NCBI GenBank assembly: GCA_951812805.1
Contig: CATOSZ010000003.1
Location: 386,557-450,556 of the forward strand
Direction: 5' to 3'
DNA from: an uncultured Alphaproteobacteria bacterium
GTDB taxonomy: Bacteria > Pseudomonadota > Alphaproteobacteria > GCA-2731375
DNA length: 64,000 bases
Part shown: positions 7,698-34,321 of the stretch, in pieces
Layout: every line of letters begins with the position of its first letter
Numbering within the stretch: the first letter of the stretch is position 1
The notes under the pieces: model-generated
What the model was told of the DNA's origin: nothing
Database searches by the model: none
The model's input: the letters and a program-made list of their open reading frames with translations, nothing else
Made by a program: the position numbers and the translations under genes

Positions 7698-10187
7698 ATG
7701 ACACTTGCTGCCGTCCGGGCCTATGACACTTTGGTGCTCAACCATCCCAAGGCGGTCCTCGTCGCGCTGCTCGCCATTCTGGTTTTCTTCGGATATCACG
7801 CAAAGGACTTCAAACTAGACGCATCGGCCGACTCCCTGTTGTTGGAAGACGATGCGGACCTCAAGCTCTACCGCGCCATCAACGAGCGCTACCCGAGCGG
7901 CGATTTGCTGATCGTAACGTTTACGCCGGACGAAGACCTGTTTTTCGACCACGCGTTGAATTCACTGAAGCAGCTCCGCAAGGAGCTCGGAACCGTCGCC
8001 AGCGTCGACAGGATGCTGACGATATTGGACGCCCCGCTGTTGAAACTGTCGGGCAAACCATTGTCGGAAGTCGCCAATCATATTTCAAGCCTGGAGGAAC
8101 CCGGTATCGATCGGGACAAGGCCAGGGACGAACTGCTGGCGAGCCCAGTGTTCCAGGACCTCATCATAAGCAAAGATGGCAAAACCACCACGCTGCTTTT
8201 GAGTTTGACGGAGAATACGCGGTTCAACGAGCTGCTCCGAACCCGTAACAAGCTGCGTTCGAAAAGCCGAAGCGCCGGCCTTACGGCCGAAGAGGCGAAA
8301 CAACTGGCAAGTGTCACTGCCGAATACGATCAAGTCCAGGAAGAGATAAGCGCGGAGCGCCACCTCGACATTGCGAGGATCAGGTCCATCATCGAGCCCT
8401 ACCGCCAGCATGGCGTCCTGTATCTCGGCGGTGTGCCGATGATTACGGACGACATGGTGACGTTCGTGCGCAACGATCTGATCGTCTTCGGTAGCATTGT
8501 CCTGTTGTTCCTCATTGCCGTTCTCACGGCGATCTTTCGGGAACTGCGCTGGATCGTTCTTCCCCTGCTCAACTGCTTCTACGCTGGCGTGGTTATGGTC
8601 GGCGTTCTGGGATTGATCGGCTGGAAGGTCACCGTCATTTCATCGAACTTTCTCGCCCTCATGCTGATCATCACCATCTCGATGAGTATTCATCTGATCG
8701 TGCGTTATCGGCAGCTGAGCCGTGATTATCCCGATGACGATCAATTGGCGCTGGTGAGGGCCACCACGCACAAGATGGCGAAGCCATGTTTCTACACGGC
8801 ACTGACGACCATCATGGGCTTCAGCTCCCTCGTCGTCAGCGACATCAAACCGGTCATCGACTTCGGCTGGATGATGAGCGCCGGCTTGACGATAACGTTC
8901 GTTACCTCGTTCGTACTGTTTCCTGCCCTGCTGATCGCAATGGGGAAATCCGGATCCAGGCCTACGCTCGAAAGCGATCGGTTTCTGCCTCCCGAATACC
9001 TGGCCCGTCTCACGGGACAACATGGCAACAAGATCCTGGCATTGGCAATTATCCTGGCCATTGTCAGTGCGGTGGGAATTTCCCGGCTGCGCGTCGAGAA
9101 CAGTTTCATAAATTACTTCAGCAGCGACACGGAAATTTATCAGGGTCTCAAGCTCATCGACGAGAAACTCGGGGGCACCACACCGCTGGAGATCGTGATC
9201 AAATTCGAGGATCCCCTGGCCGCCGTGCTGAAACCCGAGGATCTGGAAGGGCTGAGCGAGGAAGAGAAGGAAATGGAGCGCGAGTATGCGGAGGCAATCG
9301 CGAACTCACCGGAATATTGGTTTACGGCGAGTAAGATCCAACGCATCAAGGACGTGCACGACTATCTCGATCGTCTTCCCGAAATCGGCAAGGTGCTTTC
9401 ATTCGCGTCACCTGTACGCATCGCCGAAGACCTGGCCGAGGGTGAATTGGATGGTATCGAATTGGCCGTCCTCTATACTAAAATCCCGCCCGAAGTCCGA
9501 AAACACCTGGTCGAGCCTTATGTGTCCATTGATCACAACGAGGCGCGGGTCGTCGTCCGCATCGTCGATTCGAGACCGGGTTTGCGCCGCAAGGCGTTGC
9601 TGGAAAGGATACGACACGATCTGGTCGGGAAACTCGGGTTCGAGGAGCCGGACGTAACCGTCAGTGGGCTTCTGGTCCTCTACAATAATATGCTGCAGAG
9701 CCTGTTCACGTCGCAGATCAAAACCCTGGGCGTGGTCATGCTGGGTATTGCCATCATGTTCCTGGTGCTGTTCCGCTCGATCAAATTGTCGGTTATCGGA
9801 ATTCTACCAAATCTGCTGGGAGCCGCGGTCGTTTTGGGCGTGATGGGATGGGCGAATATTCCCATGGACATGATGACCATAACGATCGCCGCCATTACCA
9901 TCGGCATCGCGGTCGATAATGGCATCCATTACATTTACCGCTTCCGGGAGGAATATGCGAATAACGGTGACTATCTCGAGACTTTGCATGTTTGCCACGC
10001 CAATATCGGCAAAGCGGTATTCTATACGACCATGACCATCATCTTCGGCTTCTCCATCCTGGTATTCTCCAACTTCATACCCACGATCTATTTCGGCGTT
10101 CTGATCGCGGCGGCAATGTTTATTGCCCTTCTGGCAGCCCTCACGGTGCTGCCAAAGCTGATCCTGCTGTGGAAACCATTCGGCTGA
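7698..10187 (+). CDS. MMPL/RND-superfamily exporter (COG1033, HpnN-like), 12-TM with two large periplasmic loops
   Basis: ~830 aa with duplicated 6-TM blocks separated by soluble loops. Its GC is visibly lower (~55%) than its neighbours. Confidence 0.8.
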   Translation: MTLAAVRAYDTLVLNHPKAVLVALLAILVFFGYHAKDFKLDASADSLLLEDDADLKLYRAINERYPSGDLLIVTFTPDEDLFFDHALNSLKQLRKELGTVASVDRMLTILDAPLLKLSGKPLSEVANHISSLEEPGIDRDKARDELLASPVFQDLIISKDGKTTTLLLSLTENTRFNELLRTRNKLRSKSRSAGLTAEEAKQLASVTAEYDQVQEEISAERHLDIARIRSIIEPYRQHGVLYLGGVPMITDDMVTFVRNDLIVFGSIVLLFLIAVLTAIFRELRWIVLPLLNCFYAGVVMVGVLGLIGWKVTVISSNFLALMLIITISMSIHLIVRYRQLSRDYPDDDQLALVRATTHKMAKPCFYTALTTIMGFSSLVVSDIKPVIDFGWMMSAGLTITFVTSFVLFPALLIAMGKSGSRPTLESDRFLPPEYLARLTGQHGNKILALAIILAIVSAVGISRLRVENSFINYFSSDTEIYQGLKLIDEKLGGTTPLEIVIKFEDPLAAVLKPEDLEGLSEEEKEMEREYAEAIANSPEYWFTASKIQRIKDVHDYLDRLPEIGKVLSFASPVRIAEDLAEGELDGIELAVLYTKIPPEVRKHLVEPYVSIDHNEARVVVRIVDSRPGLRRKALLERIRHDLVGKLGFEEPDVTVSGLLVLYNNMLQSLFTSQIKTLGVVMLGIAIMFLVLFRSIKLSVIGILPNLLGAAVVLGVMGWANIPMDMMTITIAAITIGIAVDNGIHYIYRFREEYANNGDYLETLHVCHANIGKAVFYTTMTIIFGFSILVFSNFIPTIYFGVLIAAAMFIALLAALTVLPKLILLWKPFG

Positions 10188-13488: not shown

Positions 13489-14644
13489 CCGCCCGGGCGC
13501 GCCGCTGGCAATCTATGTCCATTGGCCGTTCTGCCGGGTGAAATGCCCCTATTGCGACTTCAACAGTCATGTCCGCGACGGCGTCGACCAGGCCGACTGG
13601 CGCGCCGCCTACAGGGCGGAGATCGCCTGGTGGGCCGAACGCGTGGGCAACCGGCCCGCTGCCTCCATCTTCTTCGGTGGCGGTACGCCGTCGCTGATGG
13701 ACGAGGCGACCGTCGCCGCCGTGCTGGCGGCGATCGAGACCCACTTCGGCGTCACCGAAGACGTGGAGATTACCCTCGAGGCCAATCCCACGTCGGTGGA
13801 AGCGGCCCGCTTCGCCGGCTACCGGGCGGCCGGCGTCAACCGGGTTTCGATCGGGGTGCAGGCGCTGGAGGACGACGCGCTCGCCGCGCTCGGCCGCGAG
13901 CATTCGGCGGCCGAGGCCCGCGCGGCGGTCGAGCTCGCCGGGCGGATCTTTCCGCGCCATTCGCTGGATCTGATCTACGCCCGACCGGGACAAAGCGTCG
14001 CCGCCTGGCGGGCGGAGTTGGACCAGGCCCTGGCGCTCGCGGGCGAACACCTCTCGCTCTATCAGCTGACCATCGAGGCCGGCACGGCATTTCACACCGC
14101 GCACCGCCTAGGCCGGCTGCACCTGCCGGAGGAAGACGTGCAGGAAGCCCTGCTGGAGACGACCTGGCAGGTGACGGCCGAGGCGGGCCTGCCGGCCTAT
14201 GAGATTTCCAATCACGCCCGGCCGGGGGCGGAGAGCCGGCACAACCTCGCCTACTGGCGCGGCGGCGACTATGTCGGCATCGGGCCCGGCGCGCACGGCC
14301 GGCTGACGTTCGACGGCCGGCGACACGCGACCGTCGCCCACCGCCTGCCCGAACGCTGGCGCCAGGCGGTTCTCGACGCAGGGCATGGCCGGGAAAGCGA
14401 GGACGCGCTGGCGCCCCACATCGCGGCGGAAGAAGCCCTGATGATGGGGCTGCGCCTCGTCGAAGGCGTCGCGCGGGCCCGCTTCGACGGCACCGCCGTC
14501 GCCCGGCTGGAAGAGATGGTGAACAGCGACGCCCTCGACCGACTGGTCGAGGGCGGCTTCGTCGACGTGACGGCGGACCGCCTGCGCGCAACGCCCCAGG
14601 GGCGACGTGTCCTGAACGCGGTGCTGGCCGAACTGATCGCCTGA
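13472..14644 (+). CDS. hemW: radical SAM heme chaperone HemW (HemN-like)
   Basis: CxxxCxxC radical SAM motif ([13 protein letters not shown]); rph-rdgB-hemW synteny. Confidence 0.85.
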
Positions 14645-14648
14645 TGCC

Positions 14649-15614
14649 CTACAGCACCTCGGAGTTGATCACGTTCGCCGGGTCGAGCTTGCCGTCGAAA
14701 CAGTCGACGACGTTCTGCGCCGAATTGGCGCCCATGCGGAACATGCTTTCCACCGTGACGCCGGCGGAATGCGGGCTCACCAGGATGTTGTCGTGGCGGA
14801 AGAGCGGGTTCTCCGGCACCGCCGGCTCGACCACGAAGGGATCGATGCCGGCGCCGGCGATGAGGTGCCGCTCTAGCGCGTCGTCGAGCGCCGCTTCGTC
14901 GATGATGCCGCCGCGCGCCGTGTTGACCACGAAGGCCTCCTTGCCCATCGCCTCCAGCTCGGCCGTGGCGACCATGCCCGTCGTCTCCTCGTTCTTCGGA
15001 CAGTTGACCGAGAGGAAGTCGATCTCGCCGAGTTTCGCCCGCCAATCGTCGACCGGCGTCGCGCCCGCGGTGGCGATGGCGTCCTGGATCACATAGGGAT
15101 CGTGCACCAGCACCTCCATCTCCATGGCGACACAGCGCTTGACCAGGCGGCGGCCGATGCGCCCGAAGCCGAGGATCAGCACCGTGCGCCCGGCGAGGTC
15201 GAAGGCCGGCTGTTCGAACCGGATGTTCCAGTTGCCCGCGCGCGTCTCCCGGTCGTAGCGCACCGCCTGCTTGGCCAGCGCCATCATGAAGAAGAGGGAA
15301 TGTTCCGCCACGGTGACGGAGTTGGCCGTCCCGGCGACGGCGAGCGGCACGCCGTGATCGGTCAGCGCCGGCACGTCGACGGCGTCATAGCCGACCCCGT
15401 GGCGAGCGACGATCTTCAGCTTGTCCGCCTTCTCGATGATGCGCCGGGTGAAGGGCGCGATACCGAGGATGGCGGCATCGTAGTTGGCGATATGCTGGAG
15501 GATGTTCTCCTCCGATAACTCGGTAAAGCGGTCGTACTCGACATCGTCGCGGGCGTCGAACACGGACTTGATGCCATCGGTGATCGGCATCTGGATCATC
15601 ACACGGTAGGCCAT
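14649..15614 (-). CDS. D-isomer-specific 2-hydroxyacid dehydrogenase (PGDH/hydroxypyruvate reductase-like)
   Basis: Real start MAYRVMIQ. NAD-binding GFGRIGRR motif and catalytic domain sequence. The 5' extension in the track is an artefact. Confidence 0.8.
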   Translation of the reverse strand: MAYRVMIQMPITDGIKSVFDARDDVEYDRFTELSEENILQHIANYDAAILGIAPFTRRIIEKADKLKIVARHGVGYDAVDVPALTDHGVPLAVAGTANSVTVAEHSLFFMMALAKQAVRYDRETRAGNWNIRFEQPAFDLAGRTVLILGFGRIGRRLVKRCVAMEMEVLVHDPYVIQDAIATAGATPVDDWRAKLGEIDFLSVNCPKNEETTGMVATAELEAMGKEAFVVNTARGGIIDEAALDDALERHLIAGAGIDPFVVEPAVPENPLFRHDNILVSPHSAGVTVESMFRMGANSAQNVVDCFDGKLDPANVINSEVL

Positions 15615-17106: not shown

Positions 17107-17814
17107 CTATTCAGGCTCGAGGCGGCGGCCCAGGAAACCGTGACACAGGATGAGCCAGAGGATCTTGCAGCCCGCACCGATCGTGCCGCGCACCGTGCCG
17201 GAGATCTTCGAGCGCCCGATCCGCGCCCGGTAGCGGACCGGCACCTCACGGACCGTCATCCCTTTGCGCAGCGCCTTGATCTGCATCTCGACCGTCCAGC
17301 CATAGTCCCGGTCCCGCATGGCGAGGCGGCTGAGCGCCTCCACCCGTATGGCCCGGAACGGTCCGAGGTCCGAATAGGACGCCCGCCACAACACCCGCAT
17401 CAGCAGGCAGGCCAAGGCATTGCCGAAGCGCTGCTGCGGGGTCAGCGCGCGACGACCGCCCGCCGTCATCACGCGGGAGCCGATGACGAGGTCCGCCGAG
17501 CCGCTGAGCAGCGGCGCGACCAGACGCGCCATATCCTCCGGGTAATCGCTGAAGTCGGCATCCAGGAAGACGACGATATCGACCGGCGGCAGCGCGGCGA
17601 GGCCCGCGAGACAGGCCGCGCCGTAGCCGCGCCGCGGCTCGGCCACCACCGTCGCGCCCATCGCCCGGGCGATCGCGGCGGTGCGGTCGCGTGAGCCATT
17701 GTCGGCGACGACGGCCACATCGACCCAGGCGGGAAGCGCCGCCAGGACCTTGCCGATGGCGGCTTCCTCGTCCAGGGCGGGAATGACCGTCGCAATTCTC
17801 CGGCCGTCCTTCAT
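17107..17814 (-). CDS. GT2 polyprenyl-phosphate glycosyltransferase (DPM1/GtrB/ArnC-like)
   Basis: Starts MKDGRRIATVIPALDEEAAIGKV; contains the DADFSD DxD-type motif. GGAGGA RBS. Last gene of the three-gene operon. Confidence 0.8.
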   Translation of the reverse strand: MKDGRRIATVIPALDEEAAIGKVLAALPAWVDVAVVADNGSRDRTAAIARAMGATVVAEPRRGYGAACLAGLAALPPVDIVVFLDADFSDYPEDMARLVAPLLSGSADLVIGSRVMTAGGRRALTPQQRFGNALACLLMRVLWRASYSDLGPFRAIRVEALSRLAMRDRDYGWTVEMQIKALRKGMTVREVPVRYRARIGRSKISGTVRGTIGAGCKILWLILCHGFLGRRLEPE

Positions 17815-17837
17815 CCTCGTTCCTCCGATACCTGTGG

Positions 17838-19203
17838 TCATGGCCGAAACGCCATGCGTCCGCGCAGCGCCTGCCAGGCCAGCAGGGCCAGCACCGGCGC
17901 GAACTCGACGGCGACGACGACGGTTTCGAAGACCTCGCCCTGCCCGCGGGCTTCGAGGGGAAAGCGCAAGTAATAGAGCGGCAACATCACGGTGAGGGCC
18001 ATCAGCCCGGGGACCGGCAGAATAGCCAGCAGCGGCGCGAACCAGGTGAAGTACCAGGGATAGCCGGTCGGGCTCACCAGGAACAACGCGGCGGTGACGA
18101 ATAGGACGCGCCGCGCGAGGTCGATCGGATCCCGGGCTGGCCGGATGTTCAAGGCAAGGGCGAGCGCCAGCACAACCCCGACCGCGAGCAGACGCGCAAG
18201 CTGCCCGGCATCCAGGCGGGAAATCGCCAAGTAATCGGCGAGGCCATTCACCCCCTCCCACACCAGGGTGAAGAGCGCGGCGTTCCGCCGCCATTCCCGG
18301 CCGTAAGCGACGAAGCCGGAGCCGTCGTCGAGTGCGCCCAGTAGGACCGGCAGGAAGAGCACACCGCTCGCCGCCGCGAACAGCTGCCGGGGCCGCCCGA
18401 GCCAGGACCGCAGCAGGACCGGCAACAACAAGACGGGCCAAAGCTTCACCGCCGTCGCGAGGGCGAGCAGGCCGCTCGCCAGAACCGGACGGCGGCGGAT
18501 CGCCAGCAGCAGGGCGCCCAGGACGAAGGGCAGCAGAATGCCGTCCATGTGCGCCGAATTCACCAATTCCTTGGCGATCAGCGGGTTCCACCAATAGAGC
18601 GCGGCCCACAGCGGCGAACGTCCCGTCTCGCGCAGCAGCTGAAGCAACACGACCAGGCCCACCGCCTCCGCCGTCAGCAGCACGAGGCGCAGGGCATCCA
18701 GGCTCCACGGCTCCAACAGGTGCGCGAGGAGGAAGACGGCCTGGGCGAGGGCGGGATAGATGGTGCGGAGATCGGGGTAGGTGACCCGCTCGACCACGCC
18801 GCCCGAGGCCTCACCGAGCGCCAGCCACTCGGCCGGCGCCACCCCCGCGACGACGTCGGCGGGCGCGACGGCGAAGGGGTCGAGGCCGGCGGCCACGGCC
18901 GCCCCGTCCCAGAGATAGCGATAGAAGTCGTCCTCGAAGATCGGCGCCGATGCCAGATACACCAGCCGCAACGCCAGCCCGACCAGCAGCATGACGAGGA
19001 TGGCTTGCCGGTCCAACGGCACCCGCGGCAACACCGCGGGCAGGGTCATATAGGCGACCCCGCCGGCCATCATCAGACCCACCACCAGGAACGAGGCATC
19101 GAAGGGCAGGCCGAGGCCGGCCGGCGGCAGCCGCGAGGCCACCGCCAGGGCGACGGCCGACAGGATTATCGCGCCGGCGACGACCGCGGCGGAGCGTCCC
19201 ATC
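17838..19203 (-). CDS. polytopic membrane glycosyltransferase-like protein (GT-C-like, DUF2029/GT87-type)
   Basis: ~455 aa with many TM helices, typical of lipid-linked-sugar dependent GT-C enzymes. Ends 24 nt before the GT2 gene. Confidence 0.5.
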
Positions 19204-19224
19204 CCCGGCCGCCTCCCGCGCTGT

Positions 19225-20150
19225 CTAGCTGCCGCCGCTGTAGTAGGAATCCTCCGAGACGGTGTTGCGCCTGACACGGACCCGCCGGGGGCTCGCGTCG
19301 TTCAGCCGCCAATCGTAACTGTCGTCGGCGATGGTGGTGGACCGACGCAGCCGGTTCGCGAGATCCGGCCCGGCATATTTACGCAGGTGCGCGACGATCC
19401 CGCCATCCGCCGCGAAATCCGCCTCGAACCAGCGATAGAGGCTGGAGACGTAGAGCTGCCCGCCCCGAATCTGGGCGCCCCGGGCGTCGTTGACGTAGGC
19501 GCGGGCGCCCTCGTCCAGATAGGCCTCCGCGGTCGTGGCGGTGACCGCCCGGTCGGTCAGGTCCGGGCAGCCGATCGAGGCGCAGTTGACCGCATAGTGG
19601 ATCCGCGGGTCGCGCCAGATGGGGCGGAGAATGCGATGCTCGATATCGTCGAGAGAGACGGCTTGCCCCTCGATCGTCACCAGCTTCTTGCCCCACGGCC
19701 CGTCCGTGAACCAGCCGGGTGAGATGTCGATATCGCGAATGCCGGCGACCGGATAATGCTCGAGGATCACCCAGACCGTGATCGCATTATAGAGATTGAT
19801 CCAATAGGCCAGCTGCTCGGCGCGATTGTAGGTGCTTATCGGAAGCGCCGCCAAACCACCGAGATAGCGCCCGAGTTCCGCCTTGTCGCTCCGCGTGACC
19901 TTGCCGTAGGCTACGAGGTTGGCCCCGTCGGGCCGAACGCGGACAAAGCGTTTGAGGAAGGAGTCCCAGGCCCCGTGGTCGATGCGGGTCCGCGCGTCGG
20001 GGTCGTGTGCCGACCAGCGTTCCCAAAGCTCGGCACGGGGCGCGGCGGTACTCCAGGTGGACGTAGCGAACGTCAAGGCGACCGCAGCCAGCACGCCGAG
20101 CGCCGCCTGCGCTGCCATTCCCCAGGGTTTCGACGAGATTGCATCCATGG
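19225..20150 (-). CDS. DUF547-like domain protein (secreted/periplasmic)
   Basis: Starts MDAISSKPWGMAAQAALGVLAAVALTFA (signal peptide) with a GGGAGGA RBS. First gene of the operon. The DUF547 assignment is from memory, not verified. Confidence 0.5.
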
Positions 20151-20447
20151 CCCTATTCCTCCCGATTGTCGATGTCGATCGGCTCTCCTCATATCTGGGC
20201 AGCGGCTGCCGGGGATTGAATTCAAGGCACGTCACAAGCGCGTGTGGGACGAGAGCGCGGTTCGCCGTGTCGAAGGGCGGGGAGAACGGTGTGGGCGCGC
20301 CGTCCCGAGGAATTGGCCGTCACAGCTTTGCCTCGTTGGCAATGCTCCATGCGACAGCCCAATTGGGACACCTCTGGATGCGCGACGAATTACTAGAGTG
20401 CCCCCTCCTCCTAAGTTAAACTCGCGGCGGGGAAGGATCGAGATGGC

Positions 20448-22346
20448 ATGGCTGAAGGCGAAGTCACGCGCCGGCTGACGGCGATTGTCGCCGGAGATAT
20501 CGCCGGCTACTCCCGTCTCGTTTCCGAGGACGAGGAAGGTACCCTTGCCGCCCTGCGGGCACATCGGCGCGAGCTGATCGACCCCAAGGTCGCGGCGTAT
20601 CGAGGCCGCATCGCCAACACCGCCGGCGACAGCGTTCTGATCGAGTTCCCGAGCGTTGTCGAAGCCCTGCGCTGCATGATCGACATCCAGCAGGCCATGG
20701 GGGAACGCAACGCGGATGTGCCGGAAGAACGGCGTATCCGGTTCCGCGTCGGCGTCAACCTGGGCGACGTCATCGAGCAAGAGGACGGCGATCTTCTCGG
20801 TGACGGCGTCAACGTAGCGGCGCGCCTGGAGGGCCTCGCCGAACCAGGCGGCATTTGTCTCTCTCGCGCGGCCCGCGACCAGGTGCGCGATCGGATGGAT
20901 GTCTCGTTCGAAGACTTGGGCGAGGTCGAGGTCAAGAACATCGCCCGTCCCGTGCGGACATTCCGCGTCCTTCTCGATGGCGCAGGGCCGGCGCCCGCAT
21001 CCGGCCCGACACATCGCCGGCGCGGACGCCGTAACTTCCAGGTCGCCGCCGTCGCAGTTTCGCTGGCGATCATCGGTGCCGTGTTGATTTGGCAGGAACC
21101 CTGGCGGACCGAAGTCGAAGCGGCTTCCATCGAGCGCATGGCATTCCCGCTACCCGACAAGCCATCCATTGCCGTGCTGCCCTTCTCGAACCTGTCGGAT
21201 GACGCCTCCCAGGATTTCTTCGCGGATGGCATGACCGACGACATCATCACGGACATTTCCAAGGTCTCGGGCATATTCGTCATCGCTCCGCACTCCACGC
21301 GCGGCTACAAAGACAAGGATATTCTGGATCGATCGGTCGCCGAGGAATTGGGGGTACGCTATGTACTTCGGGGCAGCGTGCGGCGCGCGGGCGGCCAGCT
21401 CCGCCTCACCGCGCGGTTGATCGACGCCATCAAAGGGGTCCACCTTTGGGCCGATCGATACGACCGCAGCGTCGAGGACGTGTTCCAGGTTCAATCCGAA
21501 TTGACGGAACAGGTCGTGAAGGCGATGGCGGTGACCCTCAAGGCCCGGGAGCAGGATCGTATCCTGCAAAAGCACGTCACGGACATCGAAGCCTACGATG
21601 CCTTCGTGCAGGCGCGGAGGATTGTCGAGGTACCCACGCCGAGCAATATCCAGAAAGGCGAGCGGCTTTTCAAGAAGACCATCGAGCTCGACCCCGAGTT
21701 CGCGGGCGGCATCGCCGGACTGTCGTTCAACCACTCGGTCAAGGCGCGGTTTGGCTACGGCCCATCGCCGCAAGAAGACGTTTCGCGGGCACTGGCCCTG
21801 GCAAGACAGGCGATCAAGGCGGATCCCGAGTTCGCCTGGTCACATATAGCGCTCGCCGGCGCGCATCTGGCGAACGGCGAACAGGACGCGGCCGTCGATG
21901 CGATGCGGCAGGCCCTCGCTATTCAGCCGGGGGGTTACGAGACCAATCTGTTCATGTCGTTCTATTTGTTCTTCGCAGGCAAGTCGGCGCTTTCCGTCGA
22001 ATATGCGGAGATCGCCGACGACTTGAGCCGCGCGCCAACCTACCGTGGCCTCTTTTTCCTGGGCATGGCCTATTTCCAGGATCGCCAGTACGCCAAGAGT
22101 GAAGCGACCTGGGACAGAATCATCCAGTCCGTCGGCATCGTAAAGCATCCGGCTTTCTATCTTTTCCAGGCGGCCTCGCAGGCTGCTCAGGACAAGATGG
22201 AAGCCGCCGGTGAGACCGTCGCGCGCTTGGAACGGATCAATCCGGAATTCCGAGTGTCGAATTTCGGCAACCTCAAGTACAACAAATCCGGGGAATTTCG
22301 TGACCGGTTGATTCGAATGGCCATCAAGGCCGGTATTCCAGAGTAG
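20448..22346 (+). CDS. class III adenylate/guanylate cyclase with C-terminal TPR-like domain
   Basis: N-terminal CHD domain (LTAIVAGDIAGYSRL ... GDGVNVAARLEGLAEPGGICLS), then a TM segment and a TPR-like C-terminus. GC is lower than the flanks. Confidence 0.85.
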   Translation: MAEGEVTRRLTAIVAGDIAGYSRLVSEDEEGTLAALRAHRRELIDPKVAAYRGRIANTAGDSVLIEFPSVVEALRCMIDIQQAMGERNADVPEERRIRFRVGVNLGDVIEQEDGDLLGDGVNVAARLEGLAEPGGICLSRAARDQVRDRMDVSFEDLGEVEVKNIARPVRTFRVLLDGAGPAPASGPTHRRRGRRNFQVAAVAVSLAIIGAVLIWQEPWRTEVEAASIERMAFPLPDKPSIAVLPFSNLSDDASQDFFADGMTDDIITDISKVSGIFVIAPHSTRGYKDKDILDRSVAEELGVRYVLRGSVRRAGGQLRLTARLIDAIKGVHLWADRYDRSVEDVFQVQSELTEQVVKAMAVTLKAREQDRILQKHVTDIEAYDAFVQARRIVEVPTPSNIQKGERLFKKTIELDPEFAGGIAGLSFNHSVKARFGYGPSPQEDVSRALALARQAIKADPEFAWSHIALAGAHLANGEQDAAVDAMRQALAIQPGGYETNLFMSFYLFFAGKSALSVEYAEIADDLSRAPTYRGLFFLGMAYFQDRQYAKSEATWDRIIQSVGIVKHPAFYLFQAASQAAQDKMEAAGETVARLERINPEFRVSNFGNLKYNKSGEFRDRLIRMAIKAGIPE

Positions 22347-22477
22347 ATTCCGAAGAACGGACCGATGGCGTTTTATTCCCGCGAAGACCGCCACGGAAGA
22401 AGGCATCGCGATTTCTGATTATGGCGTACTCCGGGGGAATGGTCCCGCCGGCATCCGCCTTGCGTCCGACGCCGCAC

Positions 22478-22535
22478 CTCAGGCTTTGGGCACGTCGTAA
22501 CGGTTCAGGAGATCGTCGACGATGCCGTCGAGTTC
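22478..22535. repeat. direct repeat copy 1 (~57 bp; core 48 bp with 1 mismatch) = 3' tail plus stop of HpaB-like gene
   Basis: Core gggcacgtcgtaacggttcaggag[a/g]tcgtcgacgatgccgtcgagttc is shared with 25047-25094. Flanks differ on both sides. Confidence 0.7.
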
Positions 22536-22667
22536 GCCCCACAGCTCGGCCCGGTGCGCCTTCATGCGGGCGAGCGTGCCGGCTTCGTCCGCCTGCATCA
22601 GGCGCGAGTAACCGACGACGTCGGCGGCGAGCACGGCCGCGAGCCCGCGTTCAATGGCCTCGGACAT
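22479..22667 (-). pseudogene. chimeric remnant: first ~45 codons of a second class III adenylate cyclase fused to the 3' tail of an HpaB-like gene
   Basis: The N-terminus LAAVLAADVVGYSRLMQADEAGTLARMKAHRAELW parallels the N-terminus of the 20448 cyclase. The C-terminus ELDGIVDDLLNRYDVPKA* is the same tail as the 25038-25481 fragment, and is part of the direct repeat. Confidence 0.5.
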
Positions 22668-23692
22668 GTTCTCAGTCTAGCGGAACGGCTGGGGAACAGG
22701 AACGGCCCGTCGAGAAGTTCAACGGCCGAAACATTCGGCTTTCCGGCCGGGGAGGAGCCGGCGCTCTTGGGGTGCAACGCCGTCGTCAACGCTCGACGTC
22801 GAACCACGGGCGAATACAATTCACTGGTCGCCGCGGGCGTCGCTCCCGTCATCGAGGGGCCTCGCCAAGTATCCATCCGTCACGGGTGCCTGAGCTCAGT
22901 ATCCATCGCAGGGATATCAACGTCCTCGTACCAGGTCGGCGCTGGCTTCAGCGACGCGACGCGCGAGCCGCAGTAATCGCACCGCCAATGCCCACCGCGC
23001 CGATGTCCTCCACTTGCAAAAGATCGAAATGCCGTCTGAATACACAAAATATTCATGGCATTACTTTAAGTATTTCGCCCTGGCCTTCAAATGTCATGAA
23101 AATACCGCCCTAATATTGTTGCGGCAGATGAAAAATAAATCTGAATAACATGCGCGTTTTTCATTGTAATCGTATCGTGGAGACGCCACGTATACTTGGC
23201 CGACAAATGGCTGTCGCGCCTAGATCGAGGCAAATCTCCAGATGTCCTTTAAGGAATTCTCATCCGCCCACAACGCCGCCGACACCATAAAGAAAACCGA
23301 CAAGCCCGCAGACACGGCGAGCGCCGAGCAGAAGCCGTCCAAGACCGAGGATATACCCGCGACAGAGGCGCCCGAGTCGACGTCATAGATCTCCACCGGG
23401 CCGCCCGCCGATGACATGGTGAACCGGGCATCCGGTGCGCACCTGCGACGTTGCACGCGGCGGGCAGGCGCATCGCTACGCCGTCACCACCCAGTGGCGT
23501 CAACGGCGATCGGCACCGCTGGGAATTTCGATGGCATCTGCGGGTGGGGCCGATACGCCGCCAGCCGACGTGCCGGTCATCGATACCCCGTCGGAAACTA
23601 GAGCGTAGCGCCTGCGAGTGACGAAGGAACGCGCCGAGTACGGTGGTTCTAGCGAATATCAGATTGAACGAGGACCGCAACGATGACTTGGA

Positions 23693-23806
23693 ATCAGCCG
23701 GGCGGCAGCGGTGGGGGCCCACAGCCTTCCAAGCTCGAGGAACTGCTGCGCGAGGGCCAGGACAACCTCAGGGGCGGGTTTCCCGGTGGCCGTTGATATC
23801 TTCCTG
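23693..23806 (+). pseudogene. hflK-like 5' remnant (36 codons then stop)
   Basis: MTWNQPGGSGGGPQPSKLEELLREGQDNLRGGFPGG resembles the Gly-rich N-terminus of HflK/SPFH modulators (MAWNQPG...). It is terminated by TGA and no SPFH domain follows. Confidence 0.35.
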
Positions 23807-23835
23807 GCGATCGTGCTGTTCGCAAGCACCTATCT

Positions 23836-25059
23836 GTGCTTCGTGCGTCTGCTGCGTTATCCGCGCAACTGGCTCCCCCCGCGTGGACGGAAACACTGGT
23901 CACCACGGCACTCGCGGTGGGCACGGTCGTCCATGTCGGACTGTCGTCGGACGGCATCGACGCCGCCGCCGCCACTCTCGTGGCAATTTTCATCATCGGG
24001 CTCTTCTATGTCGTCGCCGCGCCGGCGATTGCCTTCCGGCCGACGTCGCGATCAATGGAATTTCTGGCCCGCCACGCCGACCACGCCGGGCTTTGGATGT
24101 CGCTTCCGGCCCTCGTCGCTTGTGGGCTGGTTTGGAACCCGAAGATGCTGGCCGTCCTGCTCACGGCCATGGCGATCGAATTGGCCTGGTACGTCAGGCG
24201 ACGTCGGGCTGGCGGTCGACGGTCGCTCTATCGCCTCGACGATCACGATCTCGCCGTCCTGAAGCGGCAGGCGGGAGGTAATCTCGCCGTATTCGGAAAG
24301 CGTCACGGCATCCGCGAGCTGGAGATAAATGCAAACGCCGACGCCTGGCGCGGATGCACCAAGGAATCCGCACCGTGTCCCTTCAATCTCTACGTCAACC
24401 GTCTCGGTCTCAATACCGCGCCCTGTTGCCGCGAACACCTGGCGGAACTTTGTCGTTACGTCGCGTCCCAGCTCTCGGAATTGAACTTCGTATACTGGCT
24501 GGACGGGGGAACCTTGCTGGGGGCGGTCCGGGAGGACGGATCGCTTTTGAAATGGGAGGACGACGTCGATCTTTCCGTCCTGCTGCAAGACGATGCGTCC
24601 TGGGATCGGCTGGTCGCCGAACTGGGCGCCTGCTGTCAGCGGGACGGCTTTTCCTGCGACGTCTTTGCCAAAGAAGGTTACCTCACGATCTCCTACGACC
24701 CGCCGCAAGCATGGCCGCTGCTCTACGAGCGCTACAGGATGAGGGGCGAGATCCGCCTCGATCTCTTCGTCTATCGGGAGGCGGACAGCCGCGGCTCGGC
24801 GGTGGTCGAGCGGCGGCACTACAAGGCGTCGATGCCCGAGACCGAAAGTGGTGGCTATGGCGTGGCGCGCGACATCGTGCTGCCGACCTCGACGATCACT
24901 TTCCTCGGCGAAGAGTACTCCTGTCCCGGTCGACCGGTTGCCTATCTCGAACAGCTCTACGGTGACTTTCGGAAGGTGGAGTATTCCTATGTCGACGACT
25001 CGGCCGCCCAAACCCGCCGATCCTTGGATGTCGAAGATCAGGCCTCGGGCACGTCGTAA
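23836..25059 (+). CDS. LicD-family (phosphocholine/phospho-sugar transferase, fukutin-like) protein with N-terminal membrane region; probably frameshifted near its 5' end
   Basis: LicD signature YWLDGGTLLGAVREDGSLLKWEDDVDLSV. The upstream frame (from ~23711) encodes a TM segment and joins this frame at a C6 homopolymer tract (~23866-23872). Low-GC islet. Confidence 0.6.
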   Translation: MLRASAALSAQLAPPAWTETLVTTALAVGTVVHVGLSSDGIDAAAATLVAIFIIGLFYVVAAPAIAFRPTSRSMEFLARHADHAGLWMSLPALVACGLVWNPKMLAVLLTAMAIELAWYVRRRRAGGRRSLYRLDDHDLAVLKRQAGGNLAVFGKRHGIRELEINANADAWRGCTKESAPCPFNLYVNRLGLNTAPCCREHLAELCRYVASQLSELNFVYWLDGGTLLGAVREDGSLLKWEDDVDLSVLLQDDASWDRLVAELGACCQRDGFSCDVFAKEGYLTISYDPPQAWPLLYERYRMRGEIRLDLFVYREADSRGSAVVERRHYKASMPETESGGYGVARDIVLPTSTITFLGEEYSCPGRPVAYLEQLYGDFRKVEYSYVDDSAAQTRRSLDVEDQASGTS

Positions 25060-25094
25060 CGGTTCAGGAGGTCGTCGACGATGCCGTCGAGTTC
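25038..25094. repeat. direct repeat copy 2 (native 3' end of HpaB-like fragment)
   Basis: See copy 1. Confidence 0.7.
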
Positions 25095-25481
25095 ATCCCA
25101 CGGCGCCTCGCGGAAGCTGTGGCCGCGCACGATGAAGGGGGCGCCCGCATAGAATTTCTCATAGCTCTGATGGCGGCCGGCGAATTCGGAGCCGAAGAGA
25201 TCCCAGGCCAGGCGGAGCAGTTTCATGCGGGAGACGGCATCCATCTGCGGGGTTTGCCAGTAGGTCTCGAAGCGCTCGCGCAACGCCGGTTCCTGCAGAA
25301 CACTGACGTCCGCCGGCATCTGGAAGACGCCGCCACCGCAGAGCTCGCGCAGGATGTCGATGATGCCCGCGTGGTTCTCGGTACACCAATTGAGCGCCGC
25401 ATACATCATGCGCCGATTGAACGTGAGGTGGCCTTCGGGCCAGCTCTCCGCGGTGTGAATCGGCATGCAAAACTGACCCAC
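25038..25481 (-). pseudogene. C-terminal ~147 aa fragment of an HpaB-like (4-hydroxyphenylacetate 3-monooxygenase oxygenase component family) gene, 5'-truncated by an IS21-family insertion
   Basis: Only the C-terminal portion is present. The frame opens immediately inside the left end of the IS21 element. Confidence 0.5.
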
Positions 25482-25629
25482 TTTGGTGGGTTATGAGCGG
25501 TAAGAATTGACCCACCTGGAACGCTGCGGATTTCGGTAGTTCCGGACGGCGGTTTCAGTAAGTCCTGGCCACCGATTTCATAAAGTCCCGGCCGGTTCCG
25601 GGAGTTTGGCTTCGGGTGCCTTGTTGCCG

Positions 25630-26406
25630 TCAGTCGGGATTGTTTTCCGTTGTGGTTGGCTGGGTCAAGTCGGTCGTCGATTTCTTCTTTCGCATGCTGT
25701 CGCCTTTCAAGCCGATGCGGTGGGCGTTGTGGATGACGCGGTCGAGGATGGCGTCGGCGATGGTGGCCTCGCCGATCAGGTCGTGCCAGGCGGTCACGGG
25801 GATCTGCGCGGTGATGAGGGTTGAGCGTCGGTGGTATCGTTCCTCGCAGATTTCCAGGAGATCGAGGCGCTGGCGGTCGGTCAGGCCATGGGTTCCCCAG
25901 TCGTCGAGGACGAGCAGCTGGACCCGGGCGAGGCGGTCGATCAGGCGGGGCAGCCGGCCGTCGAGGCGGGCCATGGCGAGGTCCTCGAAGAGCCTGGGCA
26001 TGCGGACGTAGAGGACGGAATGATCGAGCCTGGCGGCCTGATGGGCGATGGCACAGGCGAGCCATGTCTTGCCGGTTCCGGTCTGGCCGGTGACGATGAG
26101 GTTCTCGTGTGCCTTGAGCCAGACGCCCTGGGCGAGAGAGAGGACGGCGCGGCGGTCGAGGCCTCGTTCGGCGGCGAAGTCGATGTCCTCGATGCAGGCC
26201 TCGGGGAAGCGTAGCCTGGCCTGTCTGAGGCGGTTGGCGAGGCGCTTGTCGGCGCGGGTGGCGGCCTCGCGGTCGAGCATGAGGGCGAGCCAGTCCTCGC
26301 GGTTCAATTCCGATGATTGGCCTCGCTCGGCCATGTCGCGGTAAGCCTCTGCCATGCCCTTGAAGCCGAGGGCCTGCATCTGGTCGAGGGTCGGGTGTGT
26401 CAGCAT
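25630..26406 (-). CDS. istB: IS21-family helper ATPase IstB
   Basis: Walker [14 protein letters not shown], IstB family. Real start [14 protein letters not shown]; the track ORF is 5'-extended. Confidence 0.85.
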
Positions 26407-26423
26407 GAGGTGTCTTCTCCTGG

Positions 26424-27977
26424 TTATCGGTAGTAGCCGGGGCCGCGGATGTTGGTGTGTGGCGGCAGCGGCAGAAGCGGTTCGCGCTCGGGGCGTGTGC
26501 GATCGAGGCCGGACTTGAGGATGGCGGCGAGCGATGAGTAGCTGGTCGTGTTGATGGTGAGCGCGCGTGCGCAGGCGGCCTCGACGCGTTCCGGTTCGTA
26601 TCGGCGGGCGAGCGACAAGACGCCCATGGCGCTGCGATAGCCTTGCTCGGGATGGGGCCGATCGCGGATCATCCGCTCGACCAGGAGGGCGGCGTTGGGG
26701 CCGATGCGGCTGGCCTGGTCGATCAGGCTTTGTGGCGTTCGCTCGGCATAGCGCTGGTGCGCCTTGGGCATGTGGGCCGGGATCGTGGCATGGCCGCCAT
26801 GCGGTGAGCGGCGGAGATGGCTGGCGACGCGCTTGTGGTTGTGGAAGATCTCGACCGTGCGGTGAGTGAGCCGGACTTGGACCTTGCGGCCGATCAGGCC
26901 GTGCGGCACGGAGTAGAAGCTGCGCTCGACGTCGACGTGATAGTCGGAATGGACCTTGGCGGTCTTCCATTCGGCATATTCGAAGGGCGTCGTCGGCAGG
27001 GGTGCCAGGGCCTCGCGCTCGATGGCCTCGAACATCTGGCGCCGGCTCTTTCCAAGGTTGCGCATGGGCCGCTCGTTGAGCTCCTCGAGGAGGTCGCGGA
27101 TCGCCCGGTTGAGCTGGTCGAGGGAGAAGAAGCGCGTATTGCGCAGTCTTGCCAGGATCCAGCGCTCGACGACCTGGACGGCGACTTCGACCTTGGCCTT
27201 GTCGCGCGGCTTGCGGACCCGGGTCGGCAGGACGGTGGTGTCGTAGTGCTCGGCGAGCGCGGCGAAGGTCGGGTTGAGGGTCGGCTCGAACCAGAGCGGC
27301 TTGGCGACGCCGGCCTTGAGGTTATCGCAGACGATGCTCTTGGGCACGCCGCCGAAGTAGGCGAGCGCCCGGCATTGTCCGGCGACCCAGTCGGGCAGGC
27401 GCTGGGTCAGGCTGGCGGTGGCGAAGGTGAGCGAGGAAGCGCCCAGCACGGCGACGAAGATCTGCGCGTCGTGCACCTCGCCGGTCTCGGGGTCGACGAT
27501 GTCCACCGTCTGGCCGGCATAATCGGTCTGCATGACCGCACCGGCCTCGTGGCGGTTGCGCCAGGTGGCGCCGGTGCGCCGCTTGAACGCCGTGAAGGCT
27601 TCGCAGAACCAGGTGTAGCCGTAGCCATCGGGATGTGAGGCGCGGTATTCCTGCCAGAGCAGGGTCAGCGTCACCCCCTTGCGCTTCAGCTCGGCCGCGA
27701 CCGTCGGCCAGTGCGGCTCGCACCTGTCGCGCGGGGGCCGGCCCATGCGGCGGAACAGCGTCTCTTGCAGGACCGCGTCGTCCTCGTATTCCGCCGGCAG
27801 CGGCCAGGCGGTAAGGCCGACCTCGCGGGCCCGCAGCAAATAGGTCGACACTGTCGTCTTGGAGACCTTCAGCCGTTCCGCCACCTCTCGCGCCGAGAGG
27901 CCTTGGTCATGCGTCAGCCGCAGGATCGTTCGTGCATCTCTCACCGTCGTTCGTCTCGTCTGCTTCCGTCTGGGCAT
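26424..27977 (-). CDS. istA: IS21-family transposase IstA
   Basis: N-terminal HTH ([21 protein letters not shown]) plus DDE integrase core; ~517 aa. Confidence 0.85.
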
Positions 27978-28200
27978 GTCCCCTCCCGGCAAAAGCCAAG
28001 AGGTAGACGCCGAGACGGCGCACCCGAAAGCTGAACTCAGATCGCCCCGTGATGCTGTCCGGGACTTTCCGGAATCACTGGCCGCGACTTACTGAAATCT
28101 CTGGCCAGGACTTTCCGTAATCGGTGTCCGGGACTTTCCGAAACGCGCAGAACGCTAGCATCCGCACGGAACAGTGCGGAGGAAAGAGCAGGTGGTATTG

Positions 28201-29700
28201 ATGGAAAGCGTATTGAAGATCCGACGTTGGATATTACGGGAGGGTCGGAGTATCCGATCTGTATCTCGTCAGACTGGTTTGTCGCGGAACACGATTAAGA
28301 AGTATCTGAAGGACGGCGATCCACCGAGCTATCAGCGGCGCGTTTCACCCGTCCGGCGTAAGCTTAGCGATGGCTTCGCCAGCCGGCTTCGGGCGCTCTT
28401 TGAGCAGGACCTGGGGCGCCCGCGCCGTGAGCGCCGGACGGCCAAGAAGCTTTATGAGCAGCTTGTGTCGGAAGGCTATAGCGGATCCTACTCGACGGTT
28501 CAGAGGTTTGTCCGCGACCTGAAGCGTTCTGGCGCCGGATCGGGGGATGCGTTCATTCCGTTGCACTTTACGGCAGGTGACGCGCTCCAGTTTGACTGGA
28601 GCACGGAATACGCTGTCCTGGGCGGTGTCGAGCAGAAGGTAAAGGTTGCCCACTTCCGCCTATGTCATAGCCGCAAGCCCTTTGTTGTTGCCTATCCCAG
28701 CGAATCTCAGGAGATGGTGCTGGACGCCTTTGCACGGGCGATGTCTTTCTATGGCGGCGTACCGCGCCGGGTGATCATCGACAACCCCAAGACGATGGTA
28801 ACCTATGTTTCGCGCTCTAAGGACCGTGTGTTCCATCCGCGCTTTCTGGCGTTGATGAACCACTATGTGATGGAACCGGTTGCTTGCACACCCGCGGCGG
28901 GGTGGGAGAAGGGTCAGATTGAGAACCAGGTTGGGTTCCTGCGGGGACAGCTGTTTGCGCCCAAGCCCGCCTTTGACGATCTGGATGCGCTGAACGGCTG
29001 GTTGCGTCTGCGCTGCGAGGAATTGGCGAATCGCGCCCACCCCGAACAATCGGATCGCAAGATCTCGGACGTGTTCGCAGACGAGTGCGCCGAACTGCGT
29101 CCCCTGGGCCGGGCTTTTGACGGCTATGTTGAGAAGGCCGCTCGTGTCCGCTCTACCTGTCTGGTCCAATATGCCACCAATCGCTATAGCGTCCCCTCCC
29201 GGTTCGCCGGGGAGCTTGTCTCTCTGCGCGCCTATGCGGACCGGATCGTGGTTGTGTCAGGGCAGAATGTGATTGCCGAGCACAAGCGCCGCTTTACCCG
29301 CAACGCCAGCTATTTCGAGCCCTGGCATTACCTGCCCCTACTCGACCGCAAGCCCGGCGCGCTGAGAGATGGCGCGCCCTTTGTGGGTTGGCAATTGCCT
29401 GAGGCGATGCACCGGGTCAGGGCGCATTACATGGCCGGCAAAGGCGGGGACCGGGAGTTTGTCGATCTGCTCCTGCTGGCCCAGGATCACGGGATCGAGG
29501 TGGTCGAGATAGCCTGTGAACTGGCCGTGGAGCAGAACACGCTGCGCCTTCCGGCCATCATCAATCTGATCAACCAACTGGTGGAGCCGGTCATCGCGCC
29601 ATGGGGCGAGAGCCACGCCTATCCGCAACTGACCTTGCGGCCCGAAGCGGACTGCAAGCGCTATGAGACGCTGTGCGTTGCCGGGGAGGCCGTCGCATGA
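28201..29700 (+). CDS. istA: IS21-family transposase IstA (copy 2)
   Basis: Starts MESVLKIRRWILREGRSIRSVSRQTGLSRNTIKKYL (HTH) followed by a DDE core. Confidence 0.85.
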   Translation: MESVLKIRRWILREGRSIRSVSRQTGLSRNTIKKYLKDGDPPSYQRRVSPVRRKLSDGFASRLRALFEQDLGRPRRERRTAKKLYEQLVSEGYSGSYSTVQRFVRDLKRSGAGSGDAFIPLHFTAGDALQFDWSTEYAVLGGVEQKVKVAHFRLCHSRKPFVVAYPSESQEMVLDAFARAMSFYGGVPRRVIIDNPKTMVTYVSRSKDRVFHPRFLALMNHYVMEPVACTPAAGWEKGQIENQVGFLRGQLFAPKPAFDDLDALNGWLRLRCEELANRAHPEQSDRKISDVFADECAELRPLGRAFDGYVEKAARVRSTCLVQYATNRYSVPSRFAGELVSLRAYADRIVVVSGQNVIAEHKRRFTRNASYFEPWHYLPLLDRKPGALRDGAPFVGWQLPEAMHRVRAHYMAGKGGDREFVDLLLLAQDHGIEVVEIACELAVEQNTLRLPAIINLINQLVEPVIAPWGESHAYPQLTLRPEADCKRYETLCVAGEAVA

Positions 29701-29916
29701 AAGCTTTGATAGACCAACTGATCGCCCTGAGGCTGTATGGAATGGCGGCTTGCGCCGAAGCTTTGCTGGCCGCGCGCAAGCCGCCAAGTCTGACCACTGC
29801 GATAAAGCAACTGATCGACGCCGAGACTGTAGAGCGCCGGGTGCGCTCTATCCAGCACCAAATGCGGGCCTCGAAGTTCCCCCACCATAAGGACTTCGCC
29901 ACTTTCGATTACGGCC
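29697..29916 (+). pseudogene. istB: istB (copy 2) N-terminal fragment, interrupted by IS1182 insertion
   Basis: MKALIDQLIALRLYGMAA...DFATFDYGLAA. The reading frame resumes at 31467 after the 1.55-kb insertion. Confidence 0.7.
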
Positions 29917-34248: not shown

Positions 34249-34321
34249 GATCCGGGTCCCCCAGCGCGTTCTTCCGTGCCATCATAGCAGCCGCGCCCGA
34301 AGTGACGGGAAGTGGGGGGAC

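Follow-up and report, generated by a model that had tools for sequence, protein, structure and literature searches.

A DUF547, GT87-like and GT2 operon of an uncultured alphaproteobacterium as a putative two-step periplasmic glycosylation module

The 64,000-nucleotide stretch of DNA studied here, hereafter the window, belongs to contig CATOSZ010000003.1 of an uncultured Alphaproteobacteria bacterium (assembly GCA_951812805.1, positions 386,557 to 450,556 of the forward strand). Its open reading frames (ORFs) include three genes placed head to tail on the minus strand, at 17107-20148, in the order DUF547, GT87-like and GT2 (a family 2 glycosyltransferase). The interpretation that we favour, with rather more confidence than doubt, is that this operon encodes a two-step periplasmic glycosylation module in the style of Ppm1/PimE, accompanied by a periplasmic DUF547 partner that would be tethered by its tail and would act on the same substrate or product. 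The genes and their features are the following.

20157-20163, minus strand: ribosome-binding site (RBS) GGGAGGA of the DUF547 gene, read from the sequence, 8 nt ahead of the ATG
19225-20148, minus strand: DUF547 gene, first in the operon (ATG at 20148, stop at 19225-19227, 307 amino acids)
20044-20148, minus strand: predicted signal peptide of DUF547 (residues 1-35), expected to be cleaved between S-T-A and A36-P37 (hydrophobic stretch and motif)
19228-19305, minus strand: C-terminal tail of DUF547 (residues 282-307, ...PRRVRVRRNTVSEDSYYSGGS), basic and predicted to be disordered, with a conserved Gly-Ser at its end (AlphaFold and alignment)
19212-19217, minus strand: RBS GGGAGG of the GT87-like gene, read from the sequence, 9 nt ahead of the ATG
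17838-19202, minus strand: gene of the GT87-like polytopic membrane glycosyltransferase of GT-C type (ATG at 19202, stop at 17838-17840, 454 amino acids)
18915-18935, minus strand: motif E90-D91-D92-F-Y-R-Y96 of the GT87-like protein, which opens the first long loop predicted on the periplasmic side and would contain the catalytic acid (homologue alignment)
17821-17826, minus strand: RBS GGAGGA of the GT2 gene, read from the sequence, 6 nt ahead of the ATG
17107-17814, minus strand: gene of the Dpm1/AglJ-like GT2, a putative polyprenyl-phosphate hexose synthase (ATG at 17814, stop at 17107-17109, 235 amino acids)
17554-17562, minus strand: DXD motif D85-A-D87 of GT2, in the context FLDADFSDYP (read from the translation)

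The genes are separated by 22 bp (19203-19224, DUF547/GT87-like) and 23 bp (17815-17837, GT87-like/GT2). An earlier, sequence-only reading of this DNA had described a three-gene DUF547 / GT-C-like / GT2 operon at 17107-20150, with gaps of 22 and 24 bp and a strong RBS for each gene. The operon is borne out by the ORFs, their spacing, the RBSs, the Pfam matches and the recurrence of the arrangement, and GGAGG-type Shine-Dalgarno sequences indeed lie 6-9 nt upstream of each start codon. The second gap has to be corrected to 23 bp, and of the coordinates, given without a strand, the first stands and the last falls two bases past the start codon at 20148. All three proteins, with identical starts, are present as called proteins in a public collection, and in the two larger ORFs the G+C content at third codon positions (GC3) amounts to 0.81-0.87. 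Searches in and around the operon gave no intrinsic terminator, no Rfam family and no consensus sigma-70 promoter, only one weak promoter-like match inside the DUF547 coding region. The same trio, in the same order, occurs in a 90%-identical relative (L166), in the distant loci L001 and L172 and in twelve further loci. Thus, the arrangement is not a chance one.

The product of the third gene matches Pfam PF00535 Glycos_transf_2 (62.6 bits for a cut-off of 23.3, E 5.9e-17) and has no transmembrane (TM) segment. Its best NCBIfam family is AglJ (TIGR04182, 115.7 bits vs a cut-off of 325, residues 8-203). The haloarchaeal dolichyl-phosphate (Dol-P) hexose transferase reaches 77.8 bits (cut-off 375), PpgS 51.9 (370) and ArnC 18.6 (529). 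AglJ, the haloarchaeal transferase and PpgS align to GT2 over about 200 residues and, in a sequence search of the PDB, the DPMS of P. furiosus (5mlz) aligns with residues 7-207. Moreover, the FLDADFSDYP segment resembles the DAD...P signature of Dpm1-type synthases. Judged by these alignments, GT2 is Dpm1/AglJ-like over its full length, and it would be expected to make a polyprenyl-phosphate hexose.

The GT87-like protein matches Pfam GT87 (PF09594, DUF2029) at 39.2 bits (cut-off 25, E 8.4e-10), over positions 2-237 of the 237 of the profile. A weak Pfam match to PIG-U is also observed, and the homologues carry PF09594 and PF26314 MptA_B_family. With scores below the NCBIfam cut-offs of the MptA/MptB equivalogs (27 bits vs 439.4 for TIGR03459; 24.7 vs 40 for NF038066), the protein is, on this measure, not a member of these equivalogs. 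An AlphaFold (AF2) model built on 30 homologues is all-helical, with a predicted local distance difference test (pLDDT) of 91.4 and a predicted TM-score (pTM) of 0.91. A PDB sequence search with the profile of the protein returned no matches and the fold search alone succeeded. Using Foldseek against the PDB, the best match of the model is PimE (9dm5, E 8.5e-4, 22% identity); GPI-MT-I (9wno), PIG-U (7wld_U) and ArnT (5f15) were also retrieved. The Foldseek probability is 1.00 for all four, with TM-scores of 0.44-0.63. ArnT, at 15% identity, ranks under PimE and GPI-MT-I, and the similarity to PIG-U is generic to the GT-C fold. As modelled, the middle protein has a GT-C fold.

A candidate active site can also be proposed. 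Residues E90, D92, R95 and Y96 of the motif listed above are invariant among the 30 GT87-like homologues and, in the AF2 model, the motif comes directly after a membrane helix, at the head of a long loop. When the positive-inside rule is applied to the arginines found between the helices of the AF2 model, this loop is predicted to be on the periplasmic side. In PimE, the catalytic D58 belongs to the first periplasmic loop, where the first juxtamembrane helix has its tip, and forms a hydrogen bond with Y62 (PMC12041525). The D92-x-x-x-Y96 spacing of the GT87-like protein equals the D58...Y62 spacing of PimE (PMC12041525), and D92 and Y96 may therefore be the counterparts of D58 and Y62.

The distribution of the gene pair was studied by a pattern scan in which one genome per species was considered. 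At least 587 matches encode a GT87-like relative, and 80 loci were kept. They span Alpha- and Gammaproteobacteria, Thermodesulfobacteriota, Acidobacteriota, Planctomycetota, Nitrospirota, Bacteroidota and candidate phyla. Of the 72 loci with enough flanking sequence, 57 have a GT2 orthologue (52-67% identity) as the next gene downstream of the GT87-like gene and in the same orientation, and this adjacency is observed in Alpha- and Gammaproteobacteria, Acidobacteriota, Planctomycetota, Hydrogenedentota, Poribacteria and others. DUF547 lies upstream of the GT87-like gene in the same direction in 14 loci out of 73 and divergently in 5; it is present within 6 kb of that gene in 23 of 56 loci (about 40%). 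Three arrangements can be distinguished (co-directional with a tail, divergent, and ArsS-type with VTT), each of which corresponds to a separate GT87-like clade. By our own estimate, a family with about one copy per genome is expected in a 12-kb window in well under 1% of cases. Being linked in three independent arrangements, DUF547 is unlikely to be a chance neighbour. Ahead of the pair, 7-8 loci of Hyphomicrobiaceae type carry genes for a Polysacc_synt_2 (CapD/PglF-like) dehydratase and for a GT4 glycosyltransferase.

The DUF547 protein matches Pfam PF04784 at 85.6 bits (cut-off 27), and its H-Y-A-V-N-C-A-x-x-G-C-P core is invariant in 32 homologues. At the N-terminus, the alignment shows a hydrophobic stretch, then a family-wide A-x-A/A-P motif just ahead of a conserved AELWERW; it is at this motif that the signal peptide is predicted to be cleaved. 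An N-terminal signal peptide or membrane anchor is carried by every DUF547 variant examined, and in the VTT-DUF547 fusions an extra TM helix precedes the DUF547 domain; this predicts a location outside the cytoplasm, in the periplasm. DUF547 would thus share the compartment of the GT-C active site. No solved structural relative of DUF547 was found among known structures.

At its other end, DUF547 carries the tail listed above, which had escaped the sequence-only reading and which marks the operon copies. Residues 282-307 have a pLDDT below 50. In the DUF547 alignment, the tail runs beyond the conserved Y-D-W-x-L-N end, is rich in Lys/Arg and Ser/Thr, and often has Gly-Ser as its final two residues. 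A tail of the form basic residue-x-G-S is present in 15/15 co-directional operon copies (12/12 from genomes, two from metagenomes, and L172). Among the copies compared, those that are divergent, rhodanese-linked, ArsS-type or unlinked lack it, with the exception of P0144, P0150 and several metagenomic copies ending in GS; a tail-less DUF547 is never found in the co-directional operon position. The Gly codons of the tail vary (GGC/GGA/GGT/GGG) while the Ser codon is AGY in 15/15 copies. This fits selection on the tail at the level of the protein rather than of the RNA or of an RBS. It should be noted that, in a neighbour-joining tree of the GT87-like proteins, the tail-plus-operon state forms a single clade, so that the 15 cases are not independent.

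Three simpler views of the tail were rejected. It is not a by-product of the downstream RBS, since 20-150 nt or more separate Gly-Ser from the following start codon and its Gly codons vary synonymously with Ser staying AGY. A C-terminal anchor signal of the glycosylphosphatidylinositol (GPI) type, suggested by the matches to PIG-U and GPI-MT-I, was discarded, no hydrophobic segment following Gly-Ser and no transamidase-like gene being found nearby. Finally, the tail is not a perfect predictor of an adjacent GT87-like gene: such a gene accompanies one of three unseen tailed proteins, P0171, and is lacking for P0144 and P0150. All co-directional operon copies are tailed; the converse is not true.

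Two loci deserve mention beside these. At L170 (5001-6990), the gene that comes directly after a tailed DUF547 (ending in ...APRKGS) encodes an enoyl-CoA hydratase, a layout that would result if the GT87-like, GT2 and SnoaL genes of the window were taken out; L170 could be a deletion or insertion variant of the locus of the window operon. At L168 (7097-11274), a tailed DUF547 overlaps the GT87-like start codon by 14 nt and no GT2 follows. Convergent to this last pair are genes for an LPG_synthase_TM (MprF-flippase-like) protein and a DAGK_cat lipid kinase, a lipid-flavoured context.

A second feature that the sequence-only reading had missed is the link of the operon to the ArsS/TIGR04282/TIGR04283 neighbourhood. 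GT2 orthologues constitute the first domain of proteins of about 700 amino acids that also contain TIGR04282 (DUF2064) and TIGR04283, both above the NCBIfam cut-offs. The fused GT2 domains are 61-67% identical to the GT2 of the window, which itself scores 39.2 bits with TIGR04283 (cut-off 182) and has no match to TIGR04282. Such fusions occur in Acidobacteriota, Abyssobacteria, Hydrogenedentota, Planctomycetota and Poribacteria. We have not seen this triple-domain protein, a 'Rosetta-stone' fusion, described before. About ten more loci are of the fusion type, including L045, L049, L060, L062, L066, L077 and L079. The fusion-type loci also hold ArsS (TIGR04167, 424 bits), a VTT/DedA protein, a MerA-like flavin adenine dinucleotide (FAD) oxidoreductase (NF004991) and a tail-less DUF547. 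In some cases, VTT/DedA is itself fused to DUF547, in proteins adjoining ArsS and the MerA-like FAD oxidoreductase. Positions below are those of each locus.

L024 7295-9388 and L032 7217-9391: fusions of GT2, TIGR04282 and TIGR04283, directly after the GT87-like gene
L055 2318-3988, L060 2234-3928 and L066 9383-11086: VTT/DedA-DUF547 fusions of 556-567 amino acids, with an extra TM helix between the domains
L008 6419-7923 and L023 7751-9267, also L014, L015, L017, L019, L043, L050, L056, L065 and L070: rhodanese loci

TIGR04283, TIGR04282, VTT, the FAD oxidoreductase or ArsS lies within 4.5 kb of DUF547 in about 34 of 84 DUF547 loci, and the ArsS-type neighbourhood is the main context of DUF547 in general. 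Since the same module is fused to TIGR04282 and TIGR04283 in other phyla, the operon resembles a larger envelope pathway that has been pared down to a self-contained unit. The 'arsenosugar' label of TIGR04282 and TIGR04283 presumably rests on context alone. In the 11 rhodanese loci, all of Hyphomicrobiales, a gene for a secreted rhodanese-domain protein is convergent to GT2; the closest NCBIfam family is NF045521 'rhoda_near_glyco', with a score below its cut-off. In L008 and L023, the rhodanese gene overlaps a tail-less DUF547 on the same strand. Literature searches found no publication on bacterial DUF547, on the three-gene cassette or on the fused ArsS-type loci. The sole functional hint that they gave comes from plants, where class IV glutaredoxins are GRX-DEP-DUF547 fusions.

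From these data, the following mechanism can be proposed. At the cytoplasmic face of the membrane, the 235-residue GT2 would move a hexose from a nucleotide sugar onto polyprenyl phosphate. The lipid-linked sugar would then be flipped across the membrane. The operon encodes no flippase, and DedA/VTT or LPG_synthase_TM proteins are found in loci related to it. At the periplasmic face, the GT87-like GT-C enzyme would pass the sugar to an acceptor by means of the invariant D92/Y96 motif of its first periplasmic loop. DUF547 would be exported to the same compartment. The large number of its invariant polar residues and its C-x-x-x-x-C motif hint at an enzyme, which may act on the substrate or the product of the transferase, and the basic Gly-Ser tail probably anchors DUF547 either to the membrane or to the transferase. 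As acceptor, we favour a glycolipid anchored in the membrane or a lipid-linked glycan, since PimE and GPI-MT-I, the closest relatives of solved structure, add sugars to lipid-anchored acceptors; the DUF547 tail or lipopolysaccharide (LPS) are possible acceptors.

This proposal keeps the logic of the sequence-only reading, a polyprenyl-phosphate-sugar system of periplasmic glycosylation, to which the families, the fold and the gene adjacency lend support, the roles being deduced from homology and gene order. Its parts fared well too. The DPM1-like nature of GT2 agrees with the full-length Dpm1/AglJ-like alignments in NCBIfam and the PDB, the GT-C character of the middle protein with the Pfam GT87 score, the domains of the homologues and the AlphaFold/Foldseek matches, the signal peptide of the first protein with the hydrophobic stretch and the A-x-A/A-P motif, and its DUF547-like nature with a Pfam score above cut-off. 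Co-occurrence across genomes, which it had put forward as a check, also came out in its favour: the GT87-like/GT2 pair is strongly conserved, with the reservation that DUF547 is optional.

Several observations weigh against the two-step module with a DUF547 partner. GT2 falls under every NCBIfam equivalog cut-off, and an equivalog-level match to a characterised synthase is lacking. Its N-terminal half, residues 2-111 only, resembles the soluble GpgS. Moreover, GT2 is absent from 15 of the 72 GT87-like loci, mostly of Thermodesulfobacteriota. Since L168 keeps DUF547 and the GT87-like gene without GT2, the donor synthase can be encoded elsewhere or differ. Seen from the side of DUF547, whose homologues (about 60% identity) greatly outnumber the GT87-like protein, a GT87-like gene is found downstream in only 2 of 80 metagenomic loci, and no GT87-like neighbour occurs in three long genomic contexts; DUF547 is therefore a facultative partner. 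Finally, none of the ArsS, TIGR04282/3, VTT, MerA-like and rhodanese genes was found in the 64-kb window.

Another possibility, unlikely in our view but worth keeping in mind, is that DUF547 itself is the acceptor. The GT87-like enzyme would O-glycosylate the conserved Ser of the tail, or a neighbouring Ser/Thr, with the donor made by GT2, in a dedicated protein O-glycosylation system. The Pseudomonas pilins offer an analogy: there the gene of the TfpO or TfpW transferase comes after that of its substrate, which is modified at a C-terminal Ser. The constant presence, in the co-directional copies, of a disordered tail rich in Ser/Thr and Lys/Arg and containing Gly-Ser, the absence of tail-less copies from that position and the conservation of the tail at the protein level all speak for this idea, as does L168, where tailed DUF547 overlaps the GT87-like start codon though GT2 is absent. 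However, tail and adjacency together characterise one GT87-like clade only, so that the cases are not independent; two of the three tailed test genes (P0144, P0150) and several metagenomic GS-ending copies have no GT87-like neighbour; and the tail is missing where DUF547 is linked to the GT87-like gene in the divergent or ArsS-type manner. The very high conservation of the core, moreover, looks like that of an enzyme rather than of a mere carrier, and the closest solved relatives of the transferase act on glycolipids. We consider it quite unlikely that the GT87-like protein is a new bacterial protein O-glycosyltransferase for the Gly-Ser of the DUF547 tail, with DUF547 as a core periplasmic component of the ArsS/TIGR04282/TIGR04283/DedA pathway.

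The pair could also modify LPS (lipid A, core or O-antigen) or another surface polysaccharide, like ArnC/ArnT or GtrB/GtrV, DUF547 being unrelated or loosely coupled. The dehydratase and GT4 genes found ahead of the pair in the Hyphomicrobiaceae-type loci, the presence of ArnT among the structural matches and the origin, judged by record titles, of all loci from Gram-negative-type phyla are in line with this view. Nevertheless, we hold it to be rather improbable: neither in the window nor in L166 is the operon flanked by LPS or polysaccharide genes, ArnT comes after PimE and GPI-MT-I with its low identity, and the three independent DUF547 arrangements argue against a chance neighbour.

It is very improbable that GT2 is a soluble GpgS-like or small-molecule glycosyltransferase, the GT87-like protein using a housekeeping pool of polyprenyl-phosphate sugar: its top PDB sequence matches are glucosyl-3-phosphoglycerate synthases (E about 1e-10), it has no TM segment and its domain is fused elsewhere to the CofC-like TIGR04282 and MftF-like TIGR04283, whose named relatives presumably act on small molecules, but the GpgS match stops at residue 111 whereas the alignments to AglJ, to the Dol-P-hexose transferase and to P. 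furiosus DPMS extend to about 200 residues, TM-less catalytic domains of Dpm1/Ppm1 are known, and a GT2 so tightly and regularly paired with a GT-C enzyme bears the classic mark of a donor synthase.

None of the genes that flank the operon hints at a target. The window has a G+C content of about 68%. Downstream of the operon are found a SnoaL-like gene, an enoyl-CoA hydratase gene, hemW and rph; upstream come an adenylate-cyclase/tetratricopeptide repeat (TPR) gene and then a stretch of lower G+C content rich in insertion sequences. In L166, the operon and its downstream flank are kept, and transposases are present upstream; a 2-hydroxyacid dehydrogenase gene lies there between the enoyl-CoA hydratase gene and hemW, and a Ham1p-like gene between hemW and rph. 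In the window, two ORFs of 150 and 138 amino acids (14644-15518, plus strand), located between hemW and the enoyl-CoA hydratase gene, have no Pfam match. The G+C content is 0.60-0.64 at 20001-30000, just upstream of the operon, and 0.55 at 8001-10000, vs 0.68-0.72 elsewhere. Between 20 and 30 kb, in what is probably a variable or acquired part of the genome, lie the adenylate-cyclase/TPR gene, a LicD-like gene, a truncated C-terminal fragment of HpaB (25038-25490) and, at 26424-28088, an ORF that encodes a Mu-transposase C-terminal domain. Further upstream, two identical copies of 1,552 bp (29916-31467 and 36154-37705), each with an ORF on the minus strand for a DDE transposase of 467 amino acids (DUF772 / DDE_Tnp_1 / DDE_Tnp_1_6), flank about 4.7 kb that include an asparagine-synthase-like gene (32392-34281). 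This looks like a composite-transposon arrangement.

With at least 587 matches and loci from many phyla, the GT87-like/GT2 system is not a lineage oddity; it is a large, unstudied envelope-modification system. The donor-synthase/GT-C pair is a standard one and its mechanism the expected one. The new part is that the pair is joined to a periplasmic protein of unknown fold and linked to an uncharacterised pathway. The DUF547 family is very abundant, from bacteria to plants; the operon puts it in the periplasm beside a lipid-linked-sugar transferase, and gene fusions tie it to the ArsS/TIGR04282/TIGR04283/DedA neighbourhood. The operon is widespread and experimentally tractable; Pelagibius sp. 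Alg239-R121 (L042) is a carrier that can be cultivated, and Denitrobaculum tricleocarpae has a DUF547 homologue (P0186). The identity of the acceptor would define a new envelope glycoconjugate, and could also clarify the products of 'arsenosugar' genes in organisms not known to make arsenosugars.

Comparison with known systems places the operon among several models. With the 'arsenosugar biosynthesis' neighbourhood (ArsS TIGR04167, TIGR04282, TIGR04283), it shares GT2 orthologues, which are fused there, and DUF547, commonly found beside these genes; however, the window has none of the genes of that neighbourhood and its GT2 is far below the TIGR04283 cut-off. With TfpO/PilO and TfpW of P. aeruginosa pilin, the likeness is that a polytopic transferase gene comes directly after the gene of a protein substrate, which parallels the Gly-Ser tail of DUF547. 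In TfpO/TfpW and in the actinobacterial Pmt/Ppm1 system of protein O-mannosylation, the modification is on a C-terminal or disordered Ser/Thr. For TfpO/PilO, TfpW and Pmt/Ppm1, the resemblance is one of gene order and tail; modification of the DUF547 tail is hypothetical, and the tail is also seen here without an adjacent transferase.

In ArnC/ArnT, as in RgtE/RgtA-D, which modify lipid A and core by way of undecaprenyl-phosphate sugars, a GT2 loads a polyprenyl-phosphate carrier and a GT-C enzyme transfers the sugar on the periplasmic face. ArnT is among the fold matches of the GT87-like protein, and a DedA-type protein is present in loci related to the operon. A requirement for DedA in modification by 4-amino-4-deoxy-L-arabinose (Ara4N) is known. 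In contrast, ArnT is a GT83 enzyme with a large periplasmic domain that is absent from the GT87-like protein, the ArnC model gives just 18.6 bits with GT2, and no lipid A genes lie near the operon.

The nearest parallel is to the mycobacterial phosphatidylinositol mannoside (PIM) pathway, in which polyprenyl-phosphomannose is the donor and the GT87 enzyme carries out alpha-1,2 mannosyl transfer. There too, in Ppm1/PimE, a GT2-type polyprenyl-phosphate hexose synthase goes with a GT87 enzyme of GT-C type, with an active site facing the periplasm; PimE is the best structural match of the GT87-like protein, and the D-x-x-x-Y spacing of its catalytic residues recurs in D92-x-x-x-Y96, their putative counterpart. 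Nevertheless, the identity to PimE is only 22%, the MptA/MptB models score far below cut-off, the GT87-like protein has two extra N-terminal helices, and the hosts are here Gram-negative-type bacteria that are not known to make PIMs. Moreover, the genes here stand next to each other and are joined by a DUF547 gene, for which the PIM pathway offers no equivalent. With a GT87 and a GT2 assigned by Pfam and belonging to no characterised equivalog family, the operon, as judged by homology, works like Ppm1/PimE, ArnC/ArnT and GtrB/GtrV.

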